A DNA stretch of 43,265 nt from Candidatus Woesearchaeota archaeon (lineage in GTDB: Archaea > Nanobdellota > Nanobdellia > Pacearchaeales > GW2011-AR1): positions 1-43,265 of the forward strand of contig CAYJSG010000002.1 in assembly GCA_964372815.1 (NCBI GenBank). The letters are read 5' to 3'. The number at the start of each line of letters is the position of its first letter. Within the stretch, counting starts at the first letter, position 1. Positions 8,675 to 28,325 of the stretch are shown here, one piece after another. The notes under the pieces were generated by a model that did not search any database, was not told where the DNA came from, and worked only from the letters and a program-made list of their open reading frames with translations. A program made the position numbers and the translations under genes.

Positions 8675-9802
8675 ATGAGAATACAATTCGGAGAATTAAA
8701 GATTGGTGAAACAGCAAAAAAGCATTTGCAAGATGTAATAAATACAAATTGGGCATCTGGAGGCCCTAAAGTCAAACTCTTTGAAGAACAGTGGAGCAAA
8801 TTATTTGGCTACAAATATAGCGTTGCTATGAGCTCTGGCACAGACGCTGACATAAATGCCTGCGCAGCGCTCTATGACTTCGGTGCAAATAGAGGAGATG
8901 AAATTATAGTTCCAGCCTTATCTTTTATAGCAACCTCAAATGCAGTTTTAGCCGCCGGCCTTAAACCAGTGTTTGTAGATATAGAAAGACACACATTAAA
9001 TATCAATCCAAAAAAAATCGAGGATAAGATAACAAAAAAAACAAAAGCAATTATGGTTGTCCATACAATGGGCAAACCATGCGATATGGACAAAATAAAT
9101 GAAATTGCAAAAAAGAATAATTTATTTATTATTGAAGATTCGTGTGAGTCGCATGGAGCAAAATACAAGGGAAAATTTGTAGGTCATTTAGGTGACATGG
9201 CAGCATTTAGTTTCTATGCAGCACATTTAATATGTTGTGGCGAAGGAGGCATGGTCTCAACAAACAATGAAAAATTAGCAGAAATCCTGCAATCAATAAG
9301 AAGTCACGGTAGAAAACCTGGAACATTATATTTTGACCATATTCGTTTCGGTATAAATTCCAAGATGAATGATATGGAAGCCTCTCTTGGATTACAGGGA
9401 GTAGAAGAATTTTGGGCTACTTTCAATAAAAGAAAAGAAAACTTATATTATTTATTAAACAAATTAGAAGATTTAGAAAAATTTGCTTTCTTTAATATAG
9501 AAGAAGAGCATGAAGTAGTCACTCCTCATGCTTTCACTATAACATTAAAAGACTCAAAATACAATTGCTCTGAACTATACTCCTTCTTGGAATCCAATGG
9601 AGTCATGTGCAAAAGAAATTTTGGTTCAATACCAACACAACATAAAGCGTTTGCTTTTATGGGACATAAATTTGGAGAATTTCCAGAATCAGAATATGTT
9701 GGAAATAATGGTTTACATTTTGGAATCCATCAATATCTAACAAGAGAAGATTTAGACTATATTTCAGACTTGGTTCATAAATATTTTGCTAAATTTAATT
9801 AA
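8675..9802 (+). CDS. DegT/DnrJ/EryC1/StrS-family PLP sugar aminotransferase
   Basis: 375 aa with SSGTDA, IVPALSFIATSNAV and EDSCESHGA, the family's layout with a conserved active-site region. Confidence 0.88.
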   Translation: MRIQFGELKIGETAKKHLQDVINTNWASGGPKVKLFEEQWSKLFGYKYSVAMSSGTDADINACAALYDFGANRGDEIIVPALSFIATSNAVLAAGLKPVFVDIERHTLNINPKKIEDKITKKTKAIMVVHTMGKPCDMDKINEIAKKNNLFIIEDSCESHGAKYKGKFVGHLGDMAAFSFYAAHLICCGEGGMVSTNNEKLAEILQSIRSHGRKPGTLYFDHIRFGINSKMNDMEASLGLQGVEEFWATFNKRKENLYYLLNKLEDLEKFAFFNIEEEHEVVTPHAFTITLKDSKYNCSELYSFLESNGVMCKRNFGSIPTQHKAFAFMGHKFGEFPESEYVGNNGLHFGIHQYLTREDLDYISDLVHKYFAKFN

Positions 9803-9803
9803 T

Positions 9804-10661
9804 ATGCCACTAAAAAGCTCTCTTCTGGTTGGAGAAATACACCCACAAGCATTATCTCTATTAAAGAAAAATACAATCTTAACAAAAAAAACTCAAGATG
9901 AATTTGATAAAATATCTTTATCAGAAGAATATGAAATTTTAATAATTAGAACATTTACAAAAATATCAGAGAAAGAATTAAATAAACTTCCAAATCTAAA
10001 ATATATAGTAAGTTGTAGCGTAGGAATAGACAACATAAATTTAGAAGAATTAAAGAAGAGAGATATATCTTTAATTTATTGCCCAGGCACTAATGCCAAT
10101 AGCGTAGCAGAACACACTCTTTATCTTATACTTTCTCTTCTAAGAGAAAGCACCCCGCAATTTATAGAATTAAAAAACAAAACCATGGGAATAATAGGAT
10201 TTGGAAACATAGGAAAATTAGTTGCAAGAAAGTTATCTGGTTTTGAGGTTAAAATAATTGCTCATGATATAATAGAACAAAATAAAGACATATTAAAGGA
10301 ATTAAAAGTAGAAATCAAAGATTTAGATTATCTTGTAAAAAATTCAGATATCGTAACAATTCACGTTAATTTAAATGAACATACAAAATCTATGATAAAC
10401 GAAACAATATTTTCAAAAATGAAGGACAATATTTTCTTAATAAATACATCAAGAGCAGAAATTATAGACGAAATATCTTTAATGAAACACAACAACTTAG
10501 GAAAATTTAAAGGCATAGCCCTAGACGTCTATTCAGAATATCTAGAAAAAAACCTTAAAGGAAATATAATTTTAACACCACATGTAGCTTCACAAGGACA
10601 AGACTCATTCAGAGAAATGTGTACAAAGCCAATAAGCGAACTATTAAAAATTATGGGTTAA
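9804..10661 (+). CDS. D-isomer-specific 2-hydroxyacid dehydrogenase family protein
   Basis: NAD fold GIIGFGNIGKLVARKL, then INTSRAEIID, ALDVY and TPHVAS. ATG at 9804 is preferred over the TTG at 9786. Confidence 0.85.
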   Translation: MPLKSSLLVGEIHPQALSLLKKNTILTKKTQDEFDKISLSEEYEILIIRTFTKISEKELNKLPNLKYIVSCSVGIDNINLEELKKRDISLIYCPGTNANSVAEHTLYLILSLLRESTPQFIELKNKTMGIIGFGNIGKLVARKLSGFEVKIIAHDIIEQNKDILKELKVEIKDLDYLVKNSDIVTIHVNLNEHTKSMINETIFSKMKDNIFLINTSRAEIIDEISLMKHNNLGKFKGIALDVYSEYLEKNLKGNIILTPHVASQGQDSFREMCTKPISELLKIMG

Positions 10662-14856: not shown

Positions 14857-16428
14857 TTATGTAGAAAAACTAGATATTCTCCCAATTTTTAACTTATTTT
14901 TAATAGTTAGCAATATAATTTTATCATTGCTGTCTAAACCGCCAGAAATTAAAATCAGAAAGATATATAATAAAATAAAGAAACAACTCAATATTAAAAA
15001 ACTTACAATATTTATGGCAAAAAATTGCTTAACATAAATCAATATAATAGTGCAAATTATTCCCATCAAAAATATTTTAATCATACTTCTTCTTGCAGGA
15101 ATCATATTAAAATTTTTTCTAACTTCAAAAATTAACAAAGCGCTTGTAATTAATATAGAGAATAATGTAGCTAGAGCAGCCCCATTTATTCCCAACTTAT
15201 TTTCAATAAACCAGATTTTTTCCATAGGAACAAAGATGTAATTTAATATTATATTTAAGATAATAGATAAACTAGTGTTAAATAATATCAATTTAGATCT
15301 GCCTTTCATTAAAAGCAGATGGTATGATATAGTCGGGACAATTGTAGTAACAAATAAACCTATAGCTAAAATTCTCAAAGAGTTTCCAGCGGCAACATAT
15401 TGCTCTCCAAATAATATCCTTATTATTATATCAGGAAATATAAAGATAAGGATAAATAATGGAAGATTTATAACAAATATCCATTTGACAACCTGTCTGC
15501 TTAATTCTTTAATCAGATGATATTTCTTTTCAGAATATATTTTTGTAATCAATGGAAAGAATAATTGCATAAATAATTCAGGAACAAAATGAAGCAGTGC
15601 AGCAATAGGCACCGCAGAAGCGTATAAACCTACCTCGACAGCAGTTTTATAATAACCTATAAAAAAAGAATCTAACCATGTTAATGCGACTTGCATAATT
15701 CCAACAAATACAACAGGCCATGAATAAGACAAAATATCTTTAGCTATTTTTATTTCCTTTCCCTCTTTTAAATTTTTATCAAAAATCTCTGGTGTTTTTT
15801 TCCTGCAGATTATAAAAACAAATATCAACATTAATAATAAACCTAACGCATGGGATAAAGGTACAGAAATACTTTCAAAACCTAAAATAATCAAAATAAC
15901 TAAAACAATTACTTTAGCGAAATTTCTAATAAAATTAGTTATAAAAGAATATTCTCTTATCTTTTCATAAGACCTCAATACAGAAAGTAGGACATTAGAA
16001 AAAGCAGTTAATGGAATCCCAATGCTCAATATTTTAATAAATAAGATAAGTTTCTCATTATGAAATATGTTAAGAGCAATAAATTCAGAAATAAAGTACA
16101 AAATAATCCCAAATATTATACTAGAAACTAAAATAAATCTTGATGTAAAATCATAAGAGTATTTTATCTTCTCCATTTCTTTTTTCCCTCTGAAAATTGA
16201 TATATATCTTAAAATGCCCTCAGGCAACCCAAAGGATGCAAAAGCAATAAAAAATCCTAAGATCATTATTCCCAAAGAATATAAGCCGTAAACCTCCGGC
16301 CCAAAATGCCTTGCGATTATTACTCTATAAACATAGGTAAACAATTTTGATAATCCAACGCCGAATAAGACTATAAAAGAAGATTTTACAATCAATCTGA
16401 GATTTTTATTAAGCTCGCTATTCTCCAT
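14857..16428 (-). CDS. Wzx-like oligosaccharide flippase (MOP/polysaccharide biosynthesis protein family)
   Basis: 523 aa with about 12-14 hydrophobic helices. The N-terminus LIVKSSFIVLFGVGLSKLFTYVYRVIIARHFGPEVYGLY is typical for the family. Confidence 0.8.
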   Translation of the reverse strand: MENSELNKNLRLIVKSSFIVLFGVGLSKLFTYVYRVIIARHFGPEVYGLYSLGIMILGFFIAFASFGLPEGILRYISIFRGKKEMEKIKYSYDFTSRFILVSSIIFGIILYFISEFIALNIFHNEKLILFIKILSIGIPLTAFSNVLLSVLRSYEKIREYSFITNFIRNFAKVIVLVILIILGFESISVPLSHALGLLLMLIFVFIICRKKTPEIFDKNLKEGKEIKIAKDILSYSWPVVFVGIMQVALTWLDSFFIGYYKTAVEVGLYASAVPIAALLHFVPELFMQLFFPLITKIYSEKKYHLIKELSRQVVKWIFVINLPLFILIFIFPDIIIRILFGEQYVAAGNSLRILAIGLFVTTIVPTISYHLLLMKGRSKLILFNTSLSIILNIILNYIFVPMEKIWFIENKLGINGAALATLFSILITSALLIFEVRKNFNMIPARRSMIKIFLMGIICTIILIYVKQFFAINIVSFLILSCFFILLYIFLILISGGLDSNDKIILLTIKNKLKIGRISSFST

Positions 16429-16592: not shown

Positions 16593-17168
16593 TCATCCTA
16601 CAAACCTTACAACCTCTAAATATAATTTTTCAAGACTTTTATCACTATTAATTTCAATCATCTTACAAAAATCTCTTATTTTGTAAAAATTAGTGTAATA
16701 ATTGTTTAGCTTTATAAAAGAAAAAGTATAACCTCTATTTCTCAAAACTTTTGGAGAAACTCTTAAAATAAGGCATAAGTCTGGTCTAGGCGTTATTAAT
16801 TTAAAAAACTTATATTTTAATCCTCTGGAAAAGACCAACTCATCATAAAAATATCTGTCAAACAGTATAAAATCAACATTATAAAATAAACTTTTCACAT
16901 ATCTAATCATTAATTCAGAATAATATATAAAATAAAAAATCCAGCTTCTCTCCCTATATCGGTCTATCCTATTTTCCTTTACTTTTTTACTTTTTTTCAT
17001 ATATAATTTAGAAAAAAGTCTTAAAATGGGATTAGAAAAATCTCTCCAACCCATAAAAATTATCTTCACACTCTTTTTCTCTATTTTAAACCTTTTCTTT
17101 ATATAATCAATCAAAGTACTCTTGCCTGTTCCATCTATCCCGATAAAACAAATTTTAATTTTTTTCAT
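16593..17168 (-). CDS. P-loop kinase, thymidylate-kinase-like fold
   Basis: Walker A FIGIDGTGKSTL and FDRYFYDE. ATG at 17168 (MKKIKICF) is preferred. Overlaps the methyltransferase stop by 14 nt. Confidence 0.6.
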   Translation of the reverse strand: MKKIKICFIGIDGTGKSTLIDYIKKRFKIEKKSVKIIFMGWRDFSNPILRLFSKLYMKKSKKVKENRIDRYRERSWIFYFIYYSELMIRYVKSLFYNVDFILFDRYFYDELVFSRGLKYKFFKLITPRPDLCLILRVSPKVLRNRGYTFSFIKLNNYYTNFYKIRDFCKMIEINSDKSLEKLYLEVVRFVG

Positions 17169-17922
17169 TTTTTTCAAATTTAACAAGATAGCTGGAAGCA
17201 AAAATCTTTGACAATAAACTCCACCTTTTTTTATAAAGCTTGTTAAATAATAATCTATTGGGAACAAGAGGAAAATCACTAAACAATATAGGGTAAACTT
17301 CTACTCTGATAAAACCTGCTCTTATTAAAAGATTGGCTAAATCTTCAACAAATATCCTGTTTTTATGTTCAATATCAATTTTTCTTCTGAATAATTTCTT
17401 TAAGGTAACTAATTTTGGATGTGGAGGCGAGCTAATAATGATTCCTTTTCCATCATTCTTTAAAATATTATAAAATTTTCTTATCACTTCAGATTTATTT
17501 GGTATATATTCTATCGCTCTTGAACAAAAAATAAAATCAAAACTCTCTTTTTTTAGTTTTACATCTAAAAAATTACTGACTATAGTTTTTACTCTCTTTC
17601 TCTCTCCTACATTCTTCTCAAACTGTTTTATCATCTCTTTTGAAATATCAACGCACAAAAAGTTAGCCCCAGGGTATTTTTTTAGCAATATTTTAGTCCA
17701 TGTCCCAGGCCCACAACCAACCTCAAGACAATTTTTAATCTCTATATCTTCTAAGTGAAATAACAAACTTCTCAAGCTATATTCATATTGTCTTATTTTC
17801 CTAGGACTGCTAAACCATCTCACATATTCATATCCACTGTCAGAAATATTCTTTGCTTTTCTATTATAAAATTCTCTAATCCAATTTCCAAATTCAATAT
17901 CTTTTTTTCTAATATTTTCCAT
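17155..17922 (-). CDS. Class I SAM-dependent methyltransferase
   Basis: Motif I LEVGCGPGTWT. 255 aa. Confidence 0.85.
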   Translation of the reverse strand: MENIRKKDIEFGNWIREFYNRKAKNISDSGYEYVRWFSSPRKIRQYEYSLRSLLFHLEDIEIKNCLEVGCGPGTWTKILLKKYPGANFLCVDISKEMIKQFEKNVGERKRVKTIVSNFLDVKLKKESFDFIFCSRAIEYIPNKSEVIRKFYNILKNDGKGIIISSPPHPKLVTLKKLFRRKIDIEHKNRIFVEDLANLLIRAGFIRVEVYPILFSDFPLVPNRLLFNKLYKKRWSLLSKIFASSYLVKFEKNEKN

Positions 17923-18157: not shown

Positions 18158-18817
18158 ATGTCTTTAATAAAAGAAATAAAAAGTTTTAGAAAAGGCCCTG
18201 AAAAATCAGGTTATGCATTGTATTATACTTATAGGCAAGTTTCCCCTTTCTTCTCTGCTCTATTTATTAAATTGAGATTTTCTCCCAATTTCATAACTTT
18301 TCTATCTATACTTTCAGATTTTTTAGTAGTTTATTTAATGTATTTACAAAACTGGATTTTAGCAGGAATTCTGGTTAATTTAGCAATGATTTTAGATTGT
18401 TCAGATGGTGAACTAGCAAGATATTACAAATCTAAGGAAAAAAGTCCAAAAGAAACACATTACGGTTCTTATTTAGATGAAGTTTTAGGAACAATTGGTT
18501 TTACATTAGTAGTATTTTTTGCAGGCTATTTTATGAATCAGCCGGCAATAGGATTATTTGCAATGTTTGGCTTATTCATGTTAATTGTAACTTCATTAAC
18601 AGCAGAAAAGGAATTTCCAAATAAGAAAGAAATTGCAAAGAAGTTTGAAGAATCTCTATTCGGAAATCTAAAAGGCAGAATAGGCTTTCCATGTGCAGCC
18701 CAGAGAATTCTAGTCAGTATAGCAGTTCTCTTTTCGAGCCATATTATTCTTCTAATCTTTGGTATTATCTGTCATCTCTTTTATCTTCTTAAGTTTTTAG
18801 TTTATAGAAAATATTAA
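18158..18817 (+). CDS. CDP-alcohol phosphatidyltransferase family membrane protein
   Basis: LDCSDGELAR (DxxDGxxAR) embedded in a multi-TM protein. The distal GxxxDxxxD part looks non-canonical (GSYLDEVLG). Confidence 0.75.
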   Translation: MSLIKEIKSFRKGPEKSGYALYYTYRQVSPFFSALFIKLRFSPNFITFLSILSDFLVVYLMYLQNWILAGILVNLAMILDCSDGELARYYKSKEKSPKETHYGSYLDEVLGTIGFTLVVFFAGYFMNQPAIGLFAMFGLFMLIVTSLTAEKEFPNKKEIAKKFEESLFGNLKGRIGFPCAAQRILVSIAVLFSSHIILLIFGIICHLFYLLKFLVYRKY

Positions 18818-18864
18818 TCTTGACTGATTTAATTACATACAAGAAATTACGCCCTATCCAGGAA

Positions 18865-19401
18865 CTAAGATGAAGATCCAAAAACTATTTTCCTTGTAAT
18901 ATCAATTAGGTCTCTGCATTTTTGAGTGAGGTCATTAATTTTTTCTTCATTCATAGATATTTTCACACTATAAGTATAATCTTCTCTCATCTCTATAACA
19001 CTCTCTTCTTTTTTCATTTCATCCTCTTGGTATTTAAAAATATCAATAAATTCTTGGTCAATGTTTGTTTTACCTTCTTCTTTAAGATACTCGATCAATA
19101 CAATAGTACATGTTTGATTTGCTGATTCATATCCAAATTTCACAGCAATTGCTAGAAAACAATGATACATTGAATAGAAAAATGCACTTGCAGACCAATC
19201 TGAAAATCCGGTTTTTACAAAATTAAGAGCGGCATCAAGATTATGTTCTGCTTTTACAATATGATTCTTTGCTTCATTTTTATCTGGACTTATTTTCAAA
19301 AGACCTCGATGTTTTGGTCTTTTTCCTTCTTTTTTACATTCCTCAATCTCTTTCTCTGCTTTCTTTAAACACCACGCAACATGCTTAGATGCTTGTGACA
19401 T
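18865..19401 (-). CDS. HEPN-domain protein (toxin partner of the MNT)
   Basis: Helical protein. The ATG at 19401 overlaps the MNT stop by 17 nt. KAEHNLDAALNF...FFYSMYHCFLAIAVKFGYES layout resembles HEPN. A canonical Rx4-6H motif is not evident. Confidence 0.6.
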   Translation of the reverse strand: MSQASKHVAWCLKKAEKEIEECKKEGKRPKHRGLLKISPDKNEAKNHIVKAEHNLDAALNFVKTGFSDWSASAFFYSMYHCFLAIAVKFGYESANQTCTIVLIEYLKEEGKTNIDQEFIDIFKYQEDEMKKEESVIEMREDYTYSVKISMNEEKINDLTQKCRDLIDITRKIVFGSSS

Positions 19402-19975
19402 TTTGTATAATCTCCACGTATTTATTTTGTCCATATAATATAAGGGCATTTTTAACAATATCTATAATAACCTTCTGTTTTTTCTGAAGATTTTTCGAGA
19501 GGTCTTGTGATGTAAGTTCTATAGAATGTATCTTTTTTGAAAGGAATTTTTGTCTTTCTTCTATTACTTTCACAACTTCCTTATATTCTTCTTTCTCCAT
19601 AACAATCATGATATCAATATCTCTCGCTTTTTCATAGTTTTTTATTATAGAACCATATAACATCACAATCCTTTCCCCCTTAAAGAGATCTTTGAATTCA
19701 TCTTTCCAACGTTTGAAGTCATTTGCTTCATCAACCAATAAAAAAGCAACGAGATTTCTTGCGTAATCGTCCTCTAAATTTAATTTATAGACTATTGATT
19801 TTCCTATTTTTCGGTCTTTTAAGATGCCTTTGTTAAAGAATTTCTTAAGTATTTTCATAGTTCCAATCCTGCTTATATTAAGAATCTTACTCAGTGAATT
19901 CGCATTGTAATAACTAGAAAAATCTTTAAACAAGATTAGCAATGCTTCTCTTTCATTTTCTGTTACAGTTGCCAT
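19385..19975 (-). CDS. wHTH-fused minimal nucleotidyltransferase (MNT antitoxin-type)
   Basis: N-terminal winged-helix-like segment (LSKILNISRIGTMKILKKF). NTase motif LYGSIIKNYEKARDIDIMIV (GS...DxD). Confidence 0.75.
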   Translation of the reverse strand: MATVTENEREALLILFKDFSSYYNANSLSKILNISRIGTMKILKKFFNKGILKDRKIGKSIVYKLNLEDDYARNLVAFLLVDEANDFKRWKDEFKDLFKGERIVMLYGSIIKNYEKARDIDIMIVMEKEEYKEVVKVIEERQKFLSKKIHSIELTSQDLSKNLQKKQKVIIDIVKNALILYGQNKYVEIIQNVTSI

Positions 19976-19995
19976 TTTCTTATGTAAACTAAAGA

Positions 19996-20026
19996 TTACT
20001 ATATAGTAACCTTTAATTACTATATA
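19996..20026. promoter_or_regulatory. Perfect 14-bp palindrome TTACTATATAGTAA plus a downstream half-site repeat, upstream of the MNT gene
   Basis: The palindrome at 19996-20009 is 21-34 nt upstream of the ATG at 19975. TTACTATATA is repeated at 20017-20026. The TATATA core could double as the TATA box. Confidence 0.4.
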
Positions 20027-20060
20027 AATCTTTCTCTTTTTAGATATCGTCTAATCTTCG

Positions 20061-20980
20061 TCAGATAACATTTTTAGCAATATGTCTAATTAATGCAAAC
20101 AATTTATTCCTTTCCAAATTCAATTTTATTCCTGCTTTTTCTGCTGGTGTTTTTCCTTTTAATCGTTGATGTGGATTTACAAAATTGTTAATGACGTGTT
20201 GTAGATTCATAAAATGCCTAGCATTGTCAAAACTATTGAATCCCCCCCCCTCATTGCATTCAATCTATCTTTTATTTTTCCATTATATCTTTCAATTGCA
20301 TTATTGTTATGCTTCAATCCAAATTTCTTGTATTTTATTGGAACTCCAAATTGCAGTTTAGAAACTCTGTAAAATAATTTTCTCCAAGCACTTTTATAAT
20401 TCTTAAATCCATCACAAACAAAGGTTATCAATTTTTTCTTTTTGCTATATTTTCTTATGTAATATTTTGCAAGTATCTGATTATAGCAAGTTTTTTTATC
20501 TGAGATAAAAATTCAATGCACTTCTCTTTTGTTCTTTTATCAACGAATAAATGAGCTAAGACATATTTTGTTCTGCTATCAATACAATTCAGGTCATAAC
20601 AATTTTTTCCATTAACTTTGACATATTTTTCATCAAGATGCAATCTTCCTTTTAACTTTGGCTGAACTTGCAAATGTATCGGATTTTAAAAAATTTGAAT
20701 ACTTTTTTGTCCATCTGTTTATTGTTTCCCTAGTTACTTTTATCCCTTCATGCTGCCATAAATGATATCGAACTTTGTAAAGAGAAAAGCCATCAATATG
20801 CTGATGAACAGCTTTAACAATAATTTCTTTTCTGAATTTCATTCTTTTAAATCCGTCATCTTCAACAAACCATTTCTTGCAATCGGCACATTGATACTTC
20901 TGTTTTTTATCATTGTTATTATTTCTAAAACCTTGTTTTAGAAGATTAGAACTTTTACAGTTAGGACATTTTATCTTCAT
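20061..20980 (-). pseudogene. IS6-type transposase with N-terminal Zn-finger, broken by three frameshifts
   Basis: CPNCKS...CADCKK, then HLDEKYVKVNG, ITFVCDGFKNY and NNAIERYNGKIKDR. After the C9 run the frame reads FNSFDNARHFMNLQHVINNFVNPHQRLKGKTPAEKAGI. Shifts occur near T6A4 (about 20685), A7 (about 20495) and C9 (20241-20249). Confidence 0.75.
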
Positions 20981-20986
20981 GTTTTT

Positions 20987-20993
20987 TACCTCC
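20987..20993 (-). promoter_or_regulatory. Strong Shine-Dalgarno (AGGAGGT) for the transposase
   Basis: Minus strand reads GAAAGGAGGTAAAAAACATG, with 6 nt spacing to the ATG at 20980. Confidence 0.6.
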
Positions 20994-21017
20994 TTTCAGA
21001 AAGATAAAACGTCTTTA

Positions 21018-21025
21018 ATATATAA
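21018..21025 (-). promoter_or_regulatory. TATA-like box inside the IS, upstream of the transposase
   Basis: Minus strand reads TTTATATA, 38-45 nt upstream of the ATG. This gives a short SD-containing leader, unlike host genes. Confidence 0.4.
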
Positions 21026-21033
21026 ATCTGACG

Positions 21034-21762
21034 TTAAATAGACAATATCTCAAATTTCAATTTAGGATAAACCTCACTCTTCGCCTTTTCATAATCTCTT
21101 AAAAAATCAATCTCAATCCAAGGCTCTTCATTAGCAAATTCAAAACCTATTTTATTTTCTTTGGATAATTCAATTAAAGGAACAATATAATAAGAATTAT
21201 CATATTCTTTTTTTCCAATAAATTTTCCGCTCTTTTCAATAAGTTTTCTTATTCCTTCTTTAGAGTATTTTGCAACACCGATAAAATTCCCATCTCCTTC
21301 TTCTACTTTAATATGGTTTCCTATATCAACAATACTATTATTTATAATTTTAACTCTAGCGCTATCTCGCAAAATCTCTCTATTATGAACTAATAAACAA
21401 AAATCCTCTTTACTTTTTACGCATTTCTCCAATAAACTCTTGCTGAATAAAACATCAGAATATAAAATAATAACATCATCATCTAATCTTTCTCTAATAC
21501 TATATAATGTATACAGGTTATTATATTTTTCATAATCAAAAAATTCCAGATAATCAGCCTTATCTCCCAAATGTTTTCTAATCAGCTCCTGCAAATATCC
21601 AACAATAACAACAACATTATTGACTCCACATTTTTCTAACATTTCAATTTGGAAATCAATTATAGCTTTCCCTTCTTCCAATTCAAGCAAACATTTAGGT
21701 TTATCTAAAGTTAAAGGATATAATCTAGAACTTTTACCAGCAGCAAGAATAACAGCCTTCAT
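21034..21762 (-). CDS. LicC/PntC-type nucleotidyltransferase (phospho(no)-alcohol cytidylyltransferase-like)
   Basis: MKAVILAAGKSSRLYPLTLDKPKCLL. 242 aa. ATGA overlap with the decarboxylase gene. Confidence 0.8.
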   Translation of the reverse strand: MKAVILAAGKSSRLYPLTLDKPKCLLELEEGKAIIDFQIEMLEKCGVNNVVVIVGYLQELIRKHLGDKADYLEFFDYEKYNNLYTLYSIRERLDDDVIILYSDVLFSKSLLEKCVKSKEDFCLLVHNREILRDSARVKIINNSIVDIGNHIKVEEGDGNFIGVAKYSKEGIRKLIEKSGKFIGKKEYDNSYYIVPLIELSKENKIGFEFANEEPWIEIDFLRDYEKAKSEVYPKLKFEILSI

Positions 21763-22886
21763 TTTTTTAAATTCTCCATAAACGCTTCTTTATTCTCCTT
21801 CGGGGTTGTTGTTGGTCTTCCCAGATCCTTTCTTGCTCCTTTATTAATTAAAATTTCTAATAAAGAAGGTCCTTCACTCTTCCTTAGAATCTCCAATTTT
21901 TCAGCAGTGTCATTCCTAGTTTCAGTTCTCCACGCATTTTTATATCCGCAGGATTTTGTTATTCCAACAAAATCTATATCAAATCCAACTGTTGGTTGTC
22001 CACCTACAGAATCATGTGAACCATTATTAAAAACAATATGCTTAAAATTATTGCATTTTCTAGCTCCTATTATTGCCAATCCACCCATATGCATTATCGC
22101 CGCACCATCACCATCAAAACAATAAACCTGCCTACCTTGTTTCACCAGCACAATTCCCAAAGCTATTTGCGAAGCATGCCCCATGCTCCCAACTGTTAAA
22201 AAATCCATTCCATGCCCTTGTCCTTTTTTTTCCCTATATTCAAATAATTCTCTTGAGATTTTTCCAGTAGTAGAAACAACAACATCTTCTTCATTTAAAG
22301 AATCAACAGCCAATTTAATAGCCTCTTCTCTGCTTAATCCATAATTTGTTTCTACTCTATTCTTTAATTCATAACGCTCAAAAGTTCCATTTCTAACAAC
22401 AAAAGCGCAGGGTATCTTATTAAATCTAGATCTTTTAACAGATTCTTCCAAAAGTAATCTGGCTTCCCTAATAGAATCAGGAAGTATAGAATAAGGAACA
22501 TTTAAAGTTTCAAGCAGACTTAGCGTTACTTTTCCCTGTTTTATATGTTGCGGCTCATCTTTAATTCCAGGCTCACCTCTCCAACCAATTAAAAGAATCA
22601 TTGGAATTCCATAAACCTCACTATCTGTCAAAGAAGTTAATGGATTAATTGCATTTCCTTCTCCAGAGTTTTGCATATAAACTAATCCTAATTTATCCCT
22701 AGCTAAATAATATCCCGTTGCAAGAGCAACAGCATTTCCTTCATTTGCGGCAATTACATGACGATTTTTAGGAGCATTATCCTCAATGTAAGCAGTAAAA
22801 TCGCTTAATAGTGAATCAGGCACGCCTGTAAAAAAATCAATTTCCTTTTCAATTAAAGCATTGTAAAATTCTTCACATTTTATCAT
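21759..22886 (-). CDS. aepY: Phosphonopyruvate decarboxylase (ThDP-dependent)
   Basis: N-terminus FFTGVPDSLLSDF. ThDP motif GDGAAIMHMGG...FNNGSHDSVGGQ. 375 aa. Directly downstream of the PEP mutase gene. Confidence 0.88.
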   Translation of the reverse strand: MIKCEEFYNALIEKEIDFFTGVPDSLLSDFTAYIEDNAPKNRHVIAANEGNAVALATGYYLARDKLGLVYMQNSGEGNAINPLTSLTDSEVYGIPMILLIGWRGEPGIKDEPQHIKQGKVTLSLLETLNVPYSILPDSIREARLLLEESVKRSRFNKIPCAFVVRNGTFERYELKNRVETNYGLSREEAIKLAVDSLNEEDVVVSTTGKISRELFEYREKKGQGHGMDFLTVGSMGHASQIALGIVLVKQGRQVYCFDGDGAAIMHMGGLAIIGARKCNNFKHIVFNNGSHDSVGGQPTVGFDIDFVGITKSCGYKNAWRTETRNDTAEKLEILRKSEGPSLLEILINKGARKDLGRPTTTPKENKEAFMENLKK

Positions 22887-24181
22887 TGTAATTCTCCCGG
22901 AACAAGCCTTAAAATTTCATTTATCGGCATACAATACTCATCAACATCGGCACAACGTGCATTTTTAAGTATTGTTATAGTAGTGTTTAACATTGCAGGA
23001 TAAGCACTTCTTAGTAAATGATTTGCATATATAACAATATTCACCCCATGATTTTCAAATTCTTTCTCATTTATATGCCCATAAGTAGAAGGCACTACTA
23101 CTAATGGCACTTTATTTTCAAATTTAGAATATTCATTACAAAACTCAATAATCTCTTTACCGTCTTTCTCTTTACTATGTATCATGATTCCATCTGCACC
23201 AGCATTAATATAGGCGAGTGCTCTTCCTAAAGCGTCTTCCAATCCCTTTTTTAATATTAAACTCTCTATTCTCGCTATAATCATAAAATCATCTGTAACT
23301 TGAGAATATTTTCCGGCTTTTATTTTCTCACAGAAATTACTAACACTATCCTGCTCTTGTTTCGCATTTTCCAACAAGGAATTTCTTTTCATACCTATTT
23401 TATCCTCTATTATTACAGCAGAAACGCCATGTCTTTCTAATTTTTTGACAGTAAAGACAAATTGTTCTATTAACCCCCCATTATCAGCATCAACTATTAA
23501 TGGTTTTGTTGTTACTTCTAAAATCTGGTCTATTGTTTGTATTCTAGATGTAACATCAACAGCCCCTATATCCGGCTTTCCCTTTGAAACTGAGTCAGTT
23601 AAGCTACTCTCCCACATTCCATCAAACTCTCTTATCTCTCCGTTTTCTTCAATTTTTGTTTTTTCAACTAGCAGCCCAGTTAAGCCATTATGAACCTCTA
23701 ATATTCTTATTAAAGGTTTTATCTTTAATAATTCCTTTAGTTTTCTTCTTCTCAAGTCAGGAGTTGTCCCCCTTCCTCTGATTTTATTTATCAATTCTGT
23801 AGCAGAGATTCCTTCAGTAAACCTTGGTTCAATAAGTTTACCATTCCATTTTTTCAATTCTTCAATTACTCTTTCCCTAACTTTAGATAAAAATCCACTC
23901 TTCCAATCGTCTCCATGTACAACATAATCAGGTTTCAATGTTTCAATATTCTCCAAGCAGCTATAACTATTTTGGGGAATTATTTTATAAATTCCTTTTA
24001 AATTCTCTAAAATTTTTTTTCTATGCTCATAAGACAATAAAGGCATTCTTCTATAACTTACAACAGCCCCATCAGTCAATAAACCAACAGTAACTTCTCC
24101 ATACTTTTCTGCCTCTTTCAATATATTTATATGCCCCGGATGCAAAAAATCAGCAGTCATCTCAACATAAACACTAGGCAT
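22883..24181 (-). CDS. aepX: Cytidylyltransferase-domain / phosphoenolpyruvate mutase fusion
   Basis: N-terminus VYVEMTADFLHPGHINILKEA (HxGH). C-terminus is PEP mutase/ICL fold with EVHNGLTG, DADNGG and EDKIGMKRNS. ATG at 24181 is preferred and overlaps the upstream stop by 8 nt. Confidence 0.88.
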   Translation of the reverse strand: MPSVYVEMTADFLHPGHINILKEAEKYGEVTVGLLTDGAVVSYRRMPLLSYEHRKKILENLKGIYKIIPQNSYSCLENIETLKPDYVVHGDDWKSGFLSKVRERVIEELKKWNGKLIEPRFTEGISATELINKIRGRGTTPDLRRRKLKELLKIKPLIRILEVHNGLTGLLVEKTKIEENGEIREFDGMWESSLTDSVSKGKPDIGAVDVTSRIQTIDQILEVTTKPLIVDADNGGLIEQFVFTVKKLERHGVSAVIIEDKIGMKRNSLLENAKQEQDSVSNFCEKIKAGKYSQVTDDFMIIARIESLILKKGLEDALGRALAYINAGADGIMIHSKEKDGKEIIEFCNEYSKFENKVPLVVVPSTYGHINEKEFENHGVNIVIYANHLLRSAYPAMLNTTITILKNARCADVDEYCMPINEILRLVPGELQ

Positions 24182-24518
24182 CTTTACTAACCACATCTCT
24201 GACAAATTTAGTTTTACACTCTTGTATAATCTCATGTAATCTAGATTTATCGACATTATGTTCAACTTTCAATGAAGAGGCTCTTCTTAAAGATGCTTCT
24301 CTAAAACATTCATTAAAATCTTCTAAAACAAAATATTTAACGTTTCTTTCATATAAATATCTTAAATTTTCAGGCACAATTTCTGTATAAGGTTCTCTCC
24401 CTATTTGAAATTGCCGATACAATATTCTTCCTTTTGGAGTTATAATATCAACTCTTTCAGGTGTTGTTATTACAGTATTCATCTCTCCTTCCAAAATATA
24501 TTCTATATTTTTCTCCAT
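24174..24518 (-). CDS. Hypothetical protein (114 aa) embedded in the phosphonate operon
   Basis: ORF abuts its upstream neighbour and overlaps its downstream one. I recognise no motif. Confidence 0.55.
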   Translation of the reverse strand: MEKNIEYILEGEMNTVITTPERVDIITPKGRILYRQFQIGREPYTEIVPENLRYLYERNVKYFVLEDFNECFREASLRRASSLKVEHNVDKSRLHEIIQECKTKFVRDVVSKDA

Positions 24519-25043
24519 TTATCTTTTTTTTATTTCCTTCTCTATATTTTTATCAGAAAGTTTCTGATAATAAGGAATTCTGACAATTTTCAATTTAATT
24601 TTTTTAATTAACCCCTCTCCAGGTATTTCTTTTTTATTATCTCCTCGGGCAATAATTACTTCAGAATTTTTAAATTGCTCTTTTATTATATTTAAATTAT
24701 CTTCAGGATTCAAACTATTCTGCGGAATAACCATATCAACACATCTTAATGCAGAAATAATAGCTTTTCTTTCAAAAAAATTTGCAACTGCCTTCTTATC
24801 ATATTCCTGCATTGCATTATCTGTCAAACCTCCACAAATATGGTAATCTCCGAGTTCATTTGCCTTTTCTAAAAACTGTAACTGCCCATAATGAAATAAA
24901 TCAGCAGCCACAGTACTATAAACTATTTTTCTTATCTTATCTTTTTCTATATTAACAATGTCACCTGCCTTTAAACCAGACCCTTTTGGAATTGTTACGC
25001 ATAATTGCCCATTCGATTTATTCTCCCAGACAACTTTTTTCAT
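24519..25043 (-). CDS. AbrB/SpoVT-like N-terminal domain fused to a TagD-like cytidylyltransferase fold with a degenerate HxGH motif
   Basis: NGQLCVTIPKGSGLKAGDIVNI is swapped-hairpin-like. KIVYSTVAADLFHYGQLQFLEKANELGDY...RCVDMVIPQ aligns to the TagD pattern GTFDLLHxGH, but reads AADLFHYGQ. ATG at 25043 is preferred. Confidence 0.65.
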   Translation of the reverse strand: MKKVVWENKSNGQLCVTIPKGSGLKAGDIVNIEKDKIRKIVYSTVAADLFHYGQLQFLEKANELGDYHICGGLTDNAMQEYDKKAVANFFERKAIISALRCVDMVIPQNSLNPEDNLNIIKEQFKNSEVIIARGDNKKEIPGEGLIKKIKLKIVRIPYYQKLSDKNIEKEIKKR

Positions 25044-25045
25044 AA

Positions 25046-25064
25046 CTACTAGTATCACTAGTAG
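25046..25064. promoter_or_regulatory. Palindrome CTACTAGT-nnn-ACTAGTAG between TATA box and operon start
   Basis: 8-bp arms with a 3-nt spacer. It ends 2 nt before the ATG at 25043 and lies directly downstream of the TATA-like box. Confidence 0.4.
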
Positions 25065-25078
25065 CTTTATAAATATTT
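25065..25078 (-). promoter_or_regulatory. TATA-like box of the phosphonate operon
   Basis: Minus strand reads AAATATTTATAAAG. The TTTATAAA core is 23-30 nt upstream of the ATG at 25043. Confidence 0.5.
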
Positions 25079-25114: not shown

Positions 25115-27622
25115 TCATATAAGTTGAATAGAACGTGTTTCAGTAGAGTTTATATTATTCGCTCGGTCAGTAATAGTTACATTATATAAATAATTACCAA
25201 GATTAAGTTTTGTGAAATTTATGAAGAATTTAGGTTTACTATAGGAAGTTCTATTTATTAAAAAATTATTATTATCAAATAAATAATATGTAATATTCTG
25301 GAAATTTTTTTCGATAACACTAACGTTCACGAAAATCCAATTTTGTGGCACTATCACGCCATCTACAACAGTGTTTACACCATATTTTATAATTGGAAAT
25401 TTAGTGTCAATAGAGAATTTTCTTGATGAAGTGGCATTATTATTACCAAATAAATCAGAGCAATAATAAATAATATTATATCCACCATCACGAAGATTAA
25501 CAATAGTATAGAAATTTATTCCATCTGTACTTTGCATAGTGTAATTCTTTTTTCCTTTATTTAAGGTATAGTTGCACATCCCGAGCTCATCTAAGCTAAC
25601 ATTAAATTGTATTGTACTAACATTATAATATGGCTTATTGGAAGTAGGAAAGTTAATTGTTATTTTGGGAGCGACAACATCGACAAGCGTCAAAGGCAAA
25701 AAGTCACCTCCTATTGCTATTTCATTATTTGCATTATAAGGTAATTCAGTATCGCCCAAACCATCACGGCTAGTATCAATTCCCTTATAATCTGACCAGA
25801 AATTCCCTCCTATAAAAGGACCTCCAACAATATTTTTTCCAGGAGTCTTTGTTATATTCCAATAATTCTCATTATTATCACCACCATCTTCAACATTTAT
25901 AGTATTATTAAATATATTATTATAAAAAAGGTTCTGAGTATTTGTATCTAACAAAATTAATCCGTTTTTGTTACCAACAATTATATTATTTGTAAATCTG
26001 TTTAATGAAGAACTTATTTTAATACCACTTTCTATATTATCTTTTATTATATTAGATTCTATAACATTAGATCCGATATATATTTGATTTGTAATAAAAA
26101 TACCATCTAAATTTTTAATGATGGTATTATTAAACAATTTATTTGAAGTTGCTCCATCTTGAGAAGTAAAACCTCTATTTTTATTATTTTCAATAAGATT
26201 ATTAGATAGTGAGTTATTCATGGAGTCGCGAGTAAGTATAAATCCTTCTGAATTGTCCTTCACAATATTCAAATTGAAATCATTCGAATTAGATAAACCA
26301 AGTAGAAAACCAAAAGCAGAGTCATCCACTTTATTATACAAAAAGTTACTTGAATTTAAACGGAATAAATAAAAACCAATTGCATTACCAGAAACATTAT
26401 TATAAAAAAAATTATTAAATGAAGAATCTTGTAAGAGATATCCAGTAGAGCCAGCACTAATTCGTGCAAAATTATTAGTAAAATTATTAAAATTAGAAGA
26501 ACCTAAATTAAAATCTCTTTCTATATTGTCACTTGCTAAATTATCACTTATAATATTAAAATTTGAAAAAGGACCTATAAAAAATCCGTTTTGATTAAAC
26601 TTTACAGTATTGTTAATAATGTAACTCTCATTTGTTGAATCTAATGTTATCCCAACAAAATACTTTTTAACTATACAATTTTTTATTGTAATATTTTTTT
26701 TATTTGTAGAATTAATACCCCAATTTATAAAATTACCAGCAATAGTATGTCCGGCGCAATCAAGAATTATATTATCTGCTCCAATAACAATCGCAGTATC
26801 AGGACAATTAAGATTAGAATCTAAGACAGTATTCTCTTTTATCACAGACCCACAAGCATTAGAGAACTCTGGAGTAAAATCATTATTTAATAGACTACTT
26901 AAATTCAATCCCCGCCCCAAATTATATAAATTTTCAACATCAACTTGATCTAGTGATCTGTTCCATATCGCAACCTCATCAATTACACCGCCCCAATATC
27001 TTTCTGGCTGATCCAGATTGCTGTGTAACCCTATTCTTAATTTTGGATTTGTAGAACTAATAGTCCCTGTAAAAGGAAGTGTATTTTCTAACTTACCATC
27101 TAGGTAAACCTGTATCTTTTCTCCATCATAAACACCTATTATATGGTACCATTTTTCAGGATCTATTGCCGAAGTTTTAACACTATTTGCTTCATTAGAA
27201 ATCAATCCTGCTTGATTTATAACTAAAAATAACAATTCATAAGAATCTCCACTTTTTGTTATTATAAATCCAACTTCTCTATCATCTAGATAACTTATAA
27301 GAGTCTGATAACTACCAAATTGAGTGGCATTAAACCACGCTTGAACACTAAATTTATTTGAGAGCTTTAAATTAGAAACTTCATTTTTAGCATATTGCCA
27401 TCCCTTATATAATAGAGCCTTGTTTATTTTTCCTTCTACCCAATTACTATCGTCCATATTAATAAGGGCTAAATTAACATTTCCAACTTTATCTGCTGTA
27501 ACTGTTCCACTTCCTTCTTCGAAATTATAATAAGTTATCAATCCATCTTTCAATCCCGCTGAAGAAAAATTCGTCATAAGAAAAAAAATAAAGAACATTA
27601 ATAAAATAGTCTCTTTTTTCAT
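25115..27622 (-). CDS. Secreted surface protein: signal peptide + LamG/ConA-like lectin domain + parallel beta-helix repeats + C-terminal Ig-like region
   Basis: Signal-like MKKETILLMFFIFFLMTNFSSAG. LamG-like block (YYNFEEGSGTVTADKVGN...IDEVAIWNRSL). Long Asn-rich periodic repeats. More than 20 N-x-S/T sequons. Confidence 0.75.
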   Translation of the reverse strand: MKKETILLMFFIFFLMTNFSSAGLKDGLITYYNFEEGSGTVTADKVGNVNLALINMDDSNWVEGKINKALLYKGWQYAKNEVSNLKLSNKFSVQAWFNATQFGSYQTLISYLDDREVGFIITKSGDSYELLFLVINQAGLISNEANSVKTSAIDPEKWYHIIGVYDGEKIQVYLDGKLENTLPFTGTISSTNPKLRIGLHSNLDQPERYWGGVIDEVAIWNRSLDQVDVENLYNLGRGLNLSSLLNNDFTPEFSNACGSVIKENTVLDSNLNCPDTAIVIGADNIILDCAGHTIAGNFINWGINSTNKKNITIKNCIVKKYFVGITLDSTNESYIINNTVKFNQNGFFIGPFSNFNIISDNLASDNIERDFNLGSSNFNNFTNNFARISAGSTGYLLQDSSFNNFFYNNVSGNAIGFYLFRLNSSNFLYNKVDDSAFGFLLGLSNSNDFNLNIVKDNSEGFILTRDSMNNSLSNNLIENNKNRGFTSQDGATSNKLFNNTIIKNLDGIFITNQIYIGSNVIESNIIKDNIESGIKISSSLNRFTNNIIVGNKNGLILLDTNTQNLFYNNIFNNTINVEDGGDNNENYWNITKTPGKNIVGGPFIGGNFWSDYKGIDTSRDGLGDTELPYNANNEIAIGGDFLPLTLVDVVAPKITINFPTSNKPYYNVSTIQFNVSLDELGMCNYTLNKGKKNYTMQSTDGINFYTIVNLRDGGYNIIYYCSDLFGNNNATSSRKFSIDTKFPIIKYGVNTVVDGVIVPQNWIFVNVSVIEKNFQNITYYLFDNNNFLINRTSYSKPKFFINFTKLNLGNYLYNVTITDRANNINSTETRSIQLI

Positions 27623-27701: not shown

Positions 27702-28325
27702 TTACTTTTCTTCCTCATACTCCTCCAGCAAAATCTTCTTAATAATTTTATAGTTATATTCGCAATTTTTCTGCCATTTAAATTTAAAATATAAATCAAG
27801 GTTAGTTGCAGGCTTCTTTATTTTTTTTAGTCTTTCAAATCTCACTTTTCTCTTCTCTTCAAATAATAAAATATTTTTTGACTTGGGCAGACAATAAAGA
27901 ACTTCTCTAATCTCTTTATCATCAACTCTTTTATGGAAAATCATAAATAAAGATTGTAATATAAACTCATCTACATAAATATCATCTTTTTTGCTCACAA
28001 TTTCATATTTAGCCAGCACCCCGGCTAAATATGAATTCCTCATTTTTAAAATACCAAGATAATTTTTAACAGTTAAATGCTCTAATTTTAACCAATTACT
28101 ATTTAACTTAAAAAAAAGATATAAAGTTTTAATAGGCTTCTTGATAAAATATTTAATAATATTATATATCTTAGTTATATTATTTCCATATTCAACTTCA
28201 TAAACTTCTTTTCCTTTTTCCTTCAATTTCTTTAAAAATGTTGTCTTTCCAGACTTCGCTAATCCAAATATTTCAATACAATTCAATCCCTTTCCTTCCT
28301 TACTTTTAATAGCCAAGACCGTCAT
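27702..28325 (-). CDS. P-loop NTPase of unknown function
   Basis: Walker A FGLAKSGKTTFL. 207 aa. No other recognisable motif. Confidence 0.55.
   Translation of the reverse strand: MTVLAIKSKEGKGLNCIEIFGLAKSGKTTFLKKLKEKGKEVYEVEYGNNITKIYNIIKYFIKKPIKTLYLFFKLNSNWLKLEHLTVKNYLGILKMRNSYLAGVLAKYEIVSKKDDIYVDEFILQSLFMIFHKRVDDKEIREVLYCLPKSKNILLFEEKRKVRFERLKKIKKPATNLDLYFKFKWQKNCEYNYKIIKKILLEEYEEEK

Follow-up and report, generated by a model that had tools for sequence, protein, structure and literature searches.

How an operon that encodes the two enzymes leading to phosphonoacetaldehyde (PnAA) can proceed beyond this intermediate, when no enzyme that would modify it is encoded nearby, is the question raised by five genes on contig CAYJSG010000002.1 of a Candidatus Woesearchaeota archaeon (assembly GCA_964372815.1). 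The genes, designated A to E, lie on the minus strand of a 43,265-nucleotide stretch, which was analysed at its full length and is referred to as the window; the coordinates of the features are given in Table 1. A previous reading of the region from its letters (the sequence-only reading) had proposed a phosphonate operon from which a tailoring gene may have been displaced by an IS6-like insertion sequence (IS). We consider it fairly probable that the region is a cell-surface phosphonate-tailoring operon of a DPANN-type archaeon, in an allele without the dehydrogenase gene of its relatives, in which the PnAA step is supplied by a non-dedicated enzyme from outside the locus and to which the IS is incidental.

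The operon and its route to phosphonoacetaldehyde

All five open reading frames (ORFs) are intact and their junctions are coupled, the genes abutting or overlapping as previously described. Orthologues of A begin with MKKVVW, so the GTG further upstream is not the start of A, and those of C begin with MPSVYVEMTADF, so the 460-aa ORF with a TTG start is not the gene. The window has a G+C content of ~30%, scans for tRNAs and Rfam families gave no match in it, and homologue searches identified metagenome-assembled genomes of Nanoarchaeota and Woesearchaeota as the closest relatives. These relatives, together with a TATA box close to the ATG of A, bear out the archaeal character that the promoter had been suspected to have. 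Contigs from two other public sequencing runs (ERR4904391 and ERR3478686; loci L109 and L110 of the comparison set) are 100% and 99.9% identical, respectively, to the A-B-C region of the window, which indicates that the same strain recurs in independent samples.

Gene C combines the Pfam domains PF01467 and PF13714. It scored 399.9 bits with the phosphoenolpyruvate (PEP) mutase model TIGR02320 (cut-off 319.55), against 137.7 and 103.8 bits with the sister families phosphonopyruvate hydrolase and methylisocitrate lyase, and carries the motifs HPGH (aa 14–17), TEGISAT (aa 122–128) and EDKIGMKRNS (aa 259–268), EDKxxxxxNS being the motif that discriminates PEP mutases (PMC6697681). In a search of the PDB, the N-terminal domain matched the cytidylyltransferase (CyTase) domain of Fom1 (5x3d; E=2.5e-46 across 133 aa) and the C-terminal domain the PEP mutase of mussel (1m1b; E=3.8e-43). 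The product of D scored 481.3 bits with the phosphonopyruvate decarboxylase model TIGR03297 (cut-off 312.5), 107 bits with sulfopyruvate decarboxylase beta and at most 43 with acetolactate synthases, and has the motif FFTGVPDSLL and a thiamine diphosphate (ThDP)-binding GDG-x25-NN motif. Since both equivalog models were passed and the motifs are present, the assignments of the sequence-only reading, cytidylyltransferase plus PEP mutase for C and phosphonopyruvate decarboxylase for D, are upheld; C is not of the methylisocitrate-lyase type and D is of neither the sulfopyruvate nor the acetolactate type. Based on these family-level assignments, the C-terminal domain of C would convert PEP to phosphonopyruvate, and D would decarboxylate it irreversibly to PnAA.

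The architecture of C is shared by more than 8000 proteins from Woesearchaeota, Nanoarchaeota, bacteria of the candidate phyla radiation, Bacteroidota, Clostridia and others (58–76% identity: 62–76% for the best 120 matches and down to 58% in 80 genome loci), and a PF01467 fusion is found in 23.6% of PEP mutase (Ppm) proteins (PMC6697681). The three nucleotidyltransferase (NTase)-fold modules counted previously are all present; they represent two folds, the HxGH/Fom1-type fold in A and in the N-terminus of C, and the LicC/GT-A-type fold in E. Their number had been regarded as unusual, but more than one NTase is often encoded in one ppm cluster (PMC6697681), and such clusters, including those with the PF01467-Ppm fusion, are already known to be common (PMC6697681, PMC8942020). 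Enzymes of the PF01467 family cytidylylate 2-hydroxyethylphosphonate (HEP; Fom1) and phosphonoformate (PhpF) (PMC6697681). In 86 fetched loci with a C-type fusion, the usual neighbour of the phosphonopyruvate decarboxylase (Ppd) gene encodes an Fe-alcohol dehydrogenase (Fe-ADH; 54 ORFs), with TagF-like transferases often next, and ~9 of the 86 have a class-V aminotransferase of the type that forms 2-aminoethylphosphonate (AEP).

Fom1 of Streptomyces wedmorensis, the HEP cytidylyltransferase/PEP mutase of the fosfomycin pathway, has the same PF01467 and PF13714 architecture as C, in which the HxGH and ISxT motifs are intact, and the likeness extends to the phosphonopyruvate decarboxylase gene that follows C. 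Unlike the Fom1 system, the window encodes neither an Fe-ADH of the FomC/PhpC type for HEP nor Fom3, Fom4 or an antibiotic pathway, and the context of C is a surface-glycan or lipid locus.

The dehydrogenase gene and the insertion block

In at least nine syntenic DPANN loci a gene for a PhnY-like PnAA dehydrogenase lies exactly between Ppd and E. A small clade of such loci, comprising L001 (identical to L006), L003, L004, L007, L088, L113 and L115, has the order P-loop gene, (A), Ppm, Ppd, 470-aa aldehyde dehydrogenase (Aldedh), E-type NTase and convergent CDP-alcohol phosphotransferase; the contig of L003 is short and does not show the P-loop gene. In L001, L003, L007 and L088 the order continues, as in the window, with the methyltransferase, the thymidylate-kinase-like gene and the flippase, followed by DUF4956 and CotH where the contig reaches that far. 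In L113 the methyltransferase and kinase-like genes are missing, and the flippase, DUF4956 and CotH are there; in L004 and L115 the next genes encode instead LicD, an aminotransferase of the AEP type and a further NTase. Compared with the order in L001, L003, L004, L007 and L088, the window differs only in the missing Aldedh gene and in an inserted block next to E. The best PDB match of the relatives' dehydrogenase is PhnY (4i3t, E=1.3e-93; next match 5e-72), and its best NCBIfam match is the phosphonoacetaldehyde dehydrogenase model TIGR03250, with 462 bits, which is under the model cut-off. The dehydrogenase-E pair also occurs, with a different, PF12804-fused Ppm, in L086/L087, L089 and L116/L117.

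Four loci lack the dehydrogenase, namely the window, L112, L008 and L111, and in these Ppd is coupled to E either directly or via B. In a neighbour-joining tree of E they are found at three separate places on a backbone of dehydrogenase-bearing loci, which implies three independent losses of the gene. The Ppd-E junction of the window is a seamless ATGA where the relatives have the dehydrogenase, and six-frame searches of the window detected no scar or remnant of it and no fragments of an Fe-ADH or an AEP transaminase. Pfam and six-frame tblastn searches likewise identified no Fe-ADH, Aldedh or class-V aminotransferase in the 43 kb; the earlier observation that the operon has no AepZ/PhnW-type aminotransferase or alcohol dehydrogenase in or beside it thus holds for the whole window. 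A DegT-family sugar aminotransferase gene overlaps a gene for a D-2-hydroxyacid dehydrogenase (PGDH-like) by 17 nt at 8675–10661, 11 kb from the operon. VlpB, a proposed phosphonopyruvate reductase, presumably also belongs to the D-2-hydroxyacid dehydrogenases; no link of the pair to the phosphonate pathway was established.

About 13% of ppm neighbourhoods are without any of the seven known branch-point enzymes (PMC8942020). The 'post-Ppd other' class of that survey, which includes some archaeal families, resembles the window in having Ppm and Ppd and none of the seven. The syntenic relatives, at least nine in number, belong to the PhnY-type phosphonoacetate clusters (~6% of ppm neighbourhoods; PMC8942020), with the order Ppm, Ppd, PhnY-like Aldedh and NTase; the window, L112, L008 and L111 have lost the dehydrogenase that defines this type and so fall into the 'post-Ppd other' class. 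What distinguishes them from the class at large is that the ancestry of the gap can be traced, to a clean and recurrent deletion of the PhnY-like gene, and that the downstream genes are under selection.

The closest relative, L112, has neither the IS nor the toxin-antitoxin pair found beside the operon in the window, and 46 bp separate its E gene from that of the convergent transferase. Homology between the two loci ends at 21056, next to the right end of the IS (21054), and resumes at 18821, such that a 2.2-kb block (18822–21055) stands where L112 has a 49-nt intergenic spacer. The Ppd-E junction is 94–95% identical at the nucleotide level in the two. The presence of the same junction and of the 46-bp gap in the IS-free locus shows that the block is an insertion and that no gene was displaced by it, contrary to the suggestion that a tailoring gene had been lost to the IS; the dehydrogenase of the relatives lies on the other side of E, between it and Ppd. 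The insertion occurred one codon before the stop of E, changing its end from YPKLKD to YPKLK-FEILSI, and the right inverted repeat of the IS (21026–21054) encodes the last six codons and the stop of E; the IS, then, does not begin within 2 nt of the last stop codon of the operon, as had been stated, but overlaps the end of E. The inverted repeats are 29 nt long (the left one at 20038–20066) and 79% complementary, two of the ORF fragments match PF13610 (DDE_Tnp_IS240), and there is an InsA-like zinc-ribbon match. No clear 8-bp target duplication flanks the IS, and the whole block is likewise without a target-site duplication. The IS6-like element and the toxin-antitoxin pair are best read as a later, incidental insertion, a bystander to the loss of the dehydrogenase.

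These findings bear on the pathway that the sequence-only reading had in view, namely an AEP pathway made up of Ppm, Ppd and PntC, from which the IS6-like element would have displaced an aminotransferase or dehydrogenase. In its favour, Ppm-Ppd clusters lead to AEP more often than to any other product (56%; PMC8942020), the fold of E is that of LicC and PntC, and the IS does abut the operon. The pathway is contradicted, however, by the IS-free L112, where nothing lies between E and the transferase gene, and by the relatives, in which the tailoring gene stands between Ppd and E and encodes a PhnY-like dehydrogenase and no aminotransferase. Searches with a family profile of E gave E=1.6e-21 for LicC (1jyk) and E=1.3e-11 for Tde-PntC (6pd1). 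In Tde-PntC, Glu104 and Glu196 contact the amine of AEP (PMC6697681); these glutamates are not conserved in the E family, which has Tyr/Phe101 and Ile/Met/Thr193 at the corresponding positions (profile alignment at ~20–25% identity). Of the earlier LicC/PntC-type designation, the LicC fold (PF12804/PF00483) therefore stands, but AEP specificity is not supported, given the absent glutamates and the aldehyde dehydrogenase that is the usual partner. An AEP-specific enzyme is an unlikely description of E, and we give the displaced AEP pathway as a whole hardly any credence.

The products of E and of the transferase gene are 86% and 96% identical, respectively, between the window and L112, and the ratios of nonsynonymous to synonymous substitution (dN/dS) are 0.145 for E (dS 0.48) and 0.062 for the transferase. 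As these low ratios are found in the state without the dehydrogenase, the downstream pathway appears to be under selection and not decaying. By contrast with its surroundings, the body of ppd (window 21860–22790 against L112 100–1090) has only 53–83% nucleotide identity in a sliding window, against 84–96% in the final 100 nt of that gene, in E and the transferase gene and at the end of ppm; this pattern indicates that ppd underwent allelic replacement, or recombination, inside the operon.

A decaying remnant, of which the loss of the dehydrogenase, the IS in E, the HYGQ of A (see below) and the orphan gene B would be signs of pseudogenisation, is improbable in our judgement. It is true that the IS has rewritten the C-terminus of E, that the dehydrogenase is absent and that the degenerate transposase shows the region to have gathered lesions. 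Against this, besides the dN/dS values, the five ORFs are intact with coupled junctions, HYGQ is kept in L004 and L008 and is thus no private lesion, B has a homologue (51% identity) in the same operon type, and the strain was recovered at 100% and 99.9% nucleotide identity from two further samples.

Activation and transfer of the phosphonate

Most members of the locus family would oxidise PnAA to phosphonoacetate by means of the PhnY-like dehydrogenase. In the window, PnAA would be modified by a non-dedicated enzyme encoded outside the locus, with phosphonoacetate, by oxidation, the likelier product and HEP, by reduction, the alternative. Oxidation is favoured because a carboxyl-O-methyltransferase-like gene, which fits a carboxylate intermediate, has been kept, and because PF01467 enzymes such as PhpF can activate a carboxy-phosphonate (PMC6697681). 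The C2 phosphonate and cytidine triphosphate would then give a cytidine monophosphate (CMP)-phosphonate, through the Fom1-type domain of C, E or both, after which a CDP-alcohol phosphotransferase homologue would move the phosphonyl group onto a membrane-anchored hydroxyl acceptor and a flippase would export the product. In our view the surface head group varies recurrently according to whether a dehydrogenase is encoded in the cluster, and this variation is tolerated.

The candidate phosphonate transferase, which the sequence-only reading had left to be searched for, is separated from E only by the insertion. It scored 46.1 bits with PF01066 (cut-off 22), has AF2299 (4o6m) and IPCT-DIPPS (4mnd) as PDB matches, and its gene is immediately downstream of E in L001, L003, L004, L007, L008, L088, L112, L113 and L115. 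Known clusters of the phosphonolipid type combine CDP-OH transferase genes with two cytidylyltransferases (PMC8942020). Phosphonyl-tailoring (Pnt) clusters with PntC and CDP-alcohol phosphotransferase genes, such as the 'Burkholderiales_CDP-OH' group (PMC6697681, PMC8942020), share with the window the Ppm-cytidylyltransferase fusion, a second, stand-alone LicC-fold enzyme, Ppd and a CDP-OH transferase-family membrane protein, as well as the logic in which CMP activation comes first and the phosphonyl group then passes to a lipid or glycan. They differ in encoding an AEP transaminase and an oxygenase, whereas the window has no transaminase, its E lacks the Tde-PntC glutamates and its host is an archaeon.

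P-loop genes resembling nucleoside monophosphate kinases are conserved beside these CMP-dependent clusters, as thymidylate-kinase-like genes at 16593–17279 and 27702–28325 in the window and as a cytidylate kinase in L116 (969–1667); recycling of CMP may be their function. A thymidylate kinase is also on record next to a ppm neighbourhood (PMC8942020).

Table 1 Features of the phosphonate operon and its surroundings in the window.
Feature	Position	Strand	Remarks
Gene A	24519–25043	-	174 aa, ATG start, first gene in the operon
Gene B	24174–24518	-	114 aa, abuts A, translationally coupled to A and C
Gene C	22883–24181	-	Start overlaps the last 8 nt of B
Gene C, N-terminal domain, Fom1-type (HxGH) cytidylyltransferase	23777–24181	-	PF01467
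Gene C, C-terminal domain, PEP mutase	22883–23752	-	EDKIGMKRNS at nt 23378–23407
Gene D, ThDP-dependent phosphonopyruvate decarboxylase	21759–22886	-	TIGR03297; ATGA overlap with C
Gene E, LicC-fold nucleotidyltransferase	21034–21762	-	PF00483/PF12804; ATGA overlap with D
TATA box TTTATAAA	25066–25073	-	22 nt before the start codon of A
Palindrome ACTAGT-N3-ACTAGT	25048–25062		Between TATA box and start of A; candidate operator
Degenerate IS6-family element	20039–21054		Transposase in three ORFs: 20633–20980, 20455–20673, 20207–20431
MNT-like nucleotidyltransferase/HEPN toxin-antitoxin pair	18865–19975	-	PF01909, PF05168; between IS and transferase gene
CDP-alcohol phosphotransferase-family membrane protein	18158–18817	+	PF01066; convergent with E; probable phosphonyl transferase
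Class-I S-adenosylmethionine methyltransferase	17155–17922	-	Best matches carboxyl-O-methyltransferases (BioC, trans-aconitate methyltransferase)
Thymidylate-kinase-like P-loop protein	16593–17279	-	Conserved downstream partner
Wzx-type flippase	14857–16428	-	Conserved downstream partner

Gene B has no Pfam or NCBIfam match, even at E<=10, and an exhaustive HMMER search of 1.84 billion representatives retrieved only B itself and one protein (P0242) of 51% identity, which is encoded between Ppd and the E-type NTase in L111. In L003, a 70-aa, internally deleted relative separates Ppd from the aldehyde dehydrogenase. The confinement of its homologues to such operons marks B as a genuine accessory gene, peculiar to operons of this kind. 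The AlphaFold2 model of B is poor (pLDDT 52), and its Foldseek matches (best probability 0.54, E>=0.4) are meaningless.

The distribution of B enters into a different account of the gap, in which PnAA or its hydrate is itself cytidylylated and transferred, giving an aldehyde head group; the dehydrogenase would then toggle between carboxylate and aldehyde, and B may help in handling the aldehyde. Consistent with this, three independent dehydrogenase-less lineages keep intact, coupled Ppd and NTase genes, purifying selection acts on E and the transferase in the absence of the dehydrogenase, and the 43 kb yielded no gene that could modify PnAA. Only loci without the dehydrogenase have a full-length B, which occupies the dehydrogenase slot in L111, while its relative in the dehydrogenase-bearing L003 is internally deleted, and no known branch enzyme is encoded in ~13% of ppm neighbourhoods (PMC8942020). 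The literature searched, on the other hand, contains no precedent for CMP-PnAA (nor any mention of CMP-phosphonoacetate), a free aldehyde head group would be reactive, L008 has no B and the correlation with B comes from three loci, and the carboxyl-type methyltransferase that is kept suggests a carboxylate intermediate. We therefore regard direct use of PnAA as unlikely, if the least so of the alternatives; the fuller proposal, in which a surface phosphonate made directly from PnAA, with one PhnY-like gene toggling the head group and B as accessory, constitutes an eighth, 'no-branch-enzyme' outcome of Ppm and Ppd, is slightly less likely still.

E and the CDP-alcohol phosphotransferase could also form a generic CDP-alcohol module of the IPCT/DIPPS type, with the phosphonate activated only by the Fom1-type domain of C, for another transferase. 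The best full-length NCBIfam coverage of the two proteins is indeed by the two halves of a bifunctional inositol-1-phosphate cytidylyltransferase/CDP-inositol transferase (also PDB 4mnd), orthologues of E are found in loci without Ppm, and two genes of the inositol-monophosphatase family are present in the window. The scores with that model are, however, 60.6 and 42.3 bits for a cut-off of 580, in all Ppm loci of the clade the E gene shows translational coupling, either to Ppd or to the dehydrogenase, and the transferase gene is the immediate convergent neighbour of E except in loci of the L086/L087/L116 type, where a radical SAM gene follows E. Such a module seems to us about as doubtful as the eighth outcome.

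Several points weigh against the reading that we favour, a surface phosphonate operon with its PnAA step supplied from outside. The enzyme for that step was not found in the 43 kb, so its supply in trans is purely presumptive. Orthologues of E that are 58–59% identical occur in L118–L121, which have neither Ppm nor Ppd, and the substrate of E consequently cannot be tied to phosphonoacetate. The transferase has DCSDGELAR-x14-GSYLDEVLG (aa 80–110) where the family signature is D-x2-D-G-x2-A-R...G-x3-D-x3-D, so that its fourth signature aspartate is a glycine when aligned to LDGVLD of AF2299; this glycine and a 6-residue insertion in the signature are conserved across the clade, in L001 (14607–15266), L004 (14543–15220) and L008 (13560–14219). 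A has HYGQ instead of HxGH, and the enzyme roles throughout the clade are predicted from sequence.

Gene A and the palindrome before it

A has a conserved, invariant-rich N-terminal extension of 35 aa followed by a Fom1-type cytidylyltransferase-like domain (PF01467), and its best PDB match by both sequence and fold is the CyTase domain of Fom1 (5x3d). At the HxGH position it carries HYGQ, and at that of the RTxGISTT-type motif PYYQKLSD. The consensus of the family is HYGH, HYGQ being found in the subclade of the window, L004 and L008. There are at least 389 homologues; the 120 listed all have at least 59% identity, and those named are from DPANN archaea (Pacearchaeota, Nanoarchaeota). A lies directly upstream of Ppm in L004, L008, L009, L011, L013, L020, L032, L041, L047, L113 and L115, and four genes upstream of it in L012.

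The palindrome ACTAGT-N3-ACTAGT has a single exact copy in the window, located downstream of the TATA box and just before A. One copy is likewise present in every one of the 14 A loci for which upstream DNA was available (13 distinct; besides the window, L004, L008, L009, L011, L012, L013, L020, L032, L041, L047, L113, L115 and L118), always 0–5 nt before the ATG of A and a few nucleotides after the TATA box, and was not found in the 107 other loci (the fetched loci total ~1.7 Mb); loci that have no A are also without the element. The hexamers are invariant and the N3 spacer is variable. At the TATA position all orthologous loci have TTTAAATA or TTTATATA, often preceded by CGAAA, and the 22-nt distance from the TATA box to the ATG would imply a leaderless transcript. 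The site between TATA box and start is the usual place of an archaeal repressor site. The palindrome is a candidate operator, and A is a conserved leader gene behind this operator-like element, whose product may be an enzyme, a regulator or both. An RNA-hairpin interpretation (the element folds at -12 kcal/mol, z=-3.8) was rejected as the principal one, since the invariant hexamers show no covariation and, judged by the distance from TATA box to ATG, most of the element lies upstream of the transcription start.

The 35-aa extension of A has no Pfam family and no significant PDB sequence match, and no DNA-binding fold was demonstrated in it; its only PDB profile matches, to methionine aminopeptidases and mini-proteins, had E~0.4–1. 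An AbrB/SpoVT-like N-terminus, considered for its VTIPK..GIK.GD.V.I appearance, is not supported, there being no Pfam match and a probability of 0.3% in hhalign against an AbrB N-domain sequence. NadR is a fusion of a DNA-binding domain with an NMN (nicotinamide mononucleotide) adenylyltransferase of the HxGH family. A resembles it in combining an extra N-terminal domain with an NTase fold of the HxGH superfamily, and sits behind a strictly conserved palindrome of its own promoter; it differs in that no DNA-binding fold was found at its N-terminus and in that A-like domains also occur fused to a citrate-synthase-like enzyme, in L118.

L118 (2566–6711) has an A orthologue and the palindrome in the same gene frame as the operon, without Ppm or Ppd; in L119 the A orthologue is cut off at the contig end, and in L120 and L121 no stand-alone A was called. 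The order in L118–L121 is a fusion of an A-like cytidylyltransferase to a citrate-synthase-like domain (434–436 aa), a 332-aa citrate-synthase-like protein, an HD-domain protein and the E-type NTase, with an asparagine-synthase homologue next in L118 and L119. The impression given by these loci is of an uncharacterised, CMP-dependent pathway that has modules in common with the phosphonate operon. The fusion of A-like domains to a citrate-synthase-like enzyme in L118 suggests that such domains are catalytic.

In L001 (9970–10000) and L003 (470–504), which have no A, the DNA before ppm still begins with ATGAAAAAA or ATGAAAAGG. Their likeness to a stump of the first codons of A (MKK...) suggests a secondary deletion of A together with the promoter element. 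In the window, a gene for an 835-aa secreted protein with NosD/beta-helix and laminin-G domains (25115–27622) stands between the P-loop gene (27702–28325) and A; in L001, L004, L008 and L115 the P-loop gene directly precedes A or Ppm, so the 835-aa gene looks like an insertion.

Most other features of the locus are already documented. Those not described in the literature searched are the recurrent loss of a branch enzyme with purifying selection downstream, the operator-like element that accompanies A, and the orphan B family. Surface phosphonate decoration is widespread and biochemically poorly resolved, and about one in eight ppm neighbourhoods has no known branch-point enzyme. As regards the original claim, the operon is not broken and the IS is a bystander. 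The palindrome and A provide a testable handle on the control of a surface-modification operon in DPANN archaea, in which few regulators have been characterised. The loci constitute a natural experiment, in which close archaeal relatives differ only in the gene that modifies PnAA while the activating and transferring genes are under selection in both states, and a comparison of the two alleles would tell whether PnAA needs dedicated tailoring before its nucleotidyl activation.

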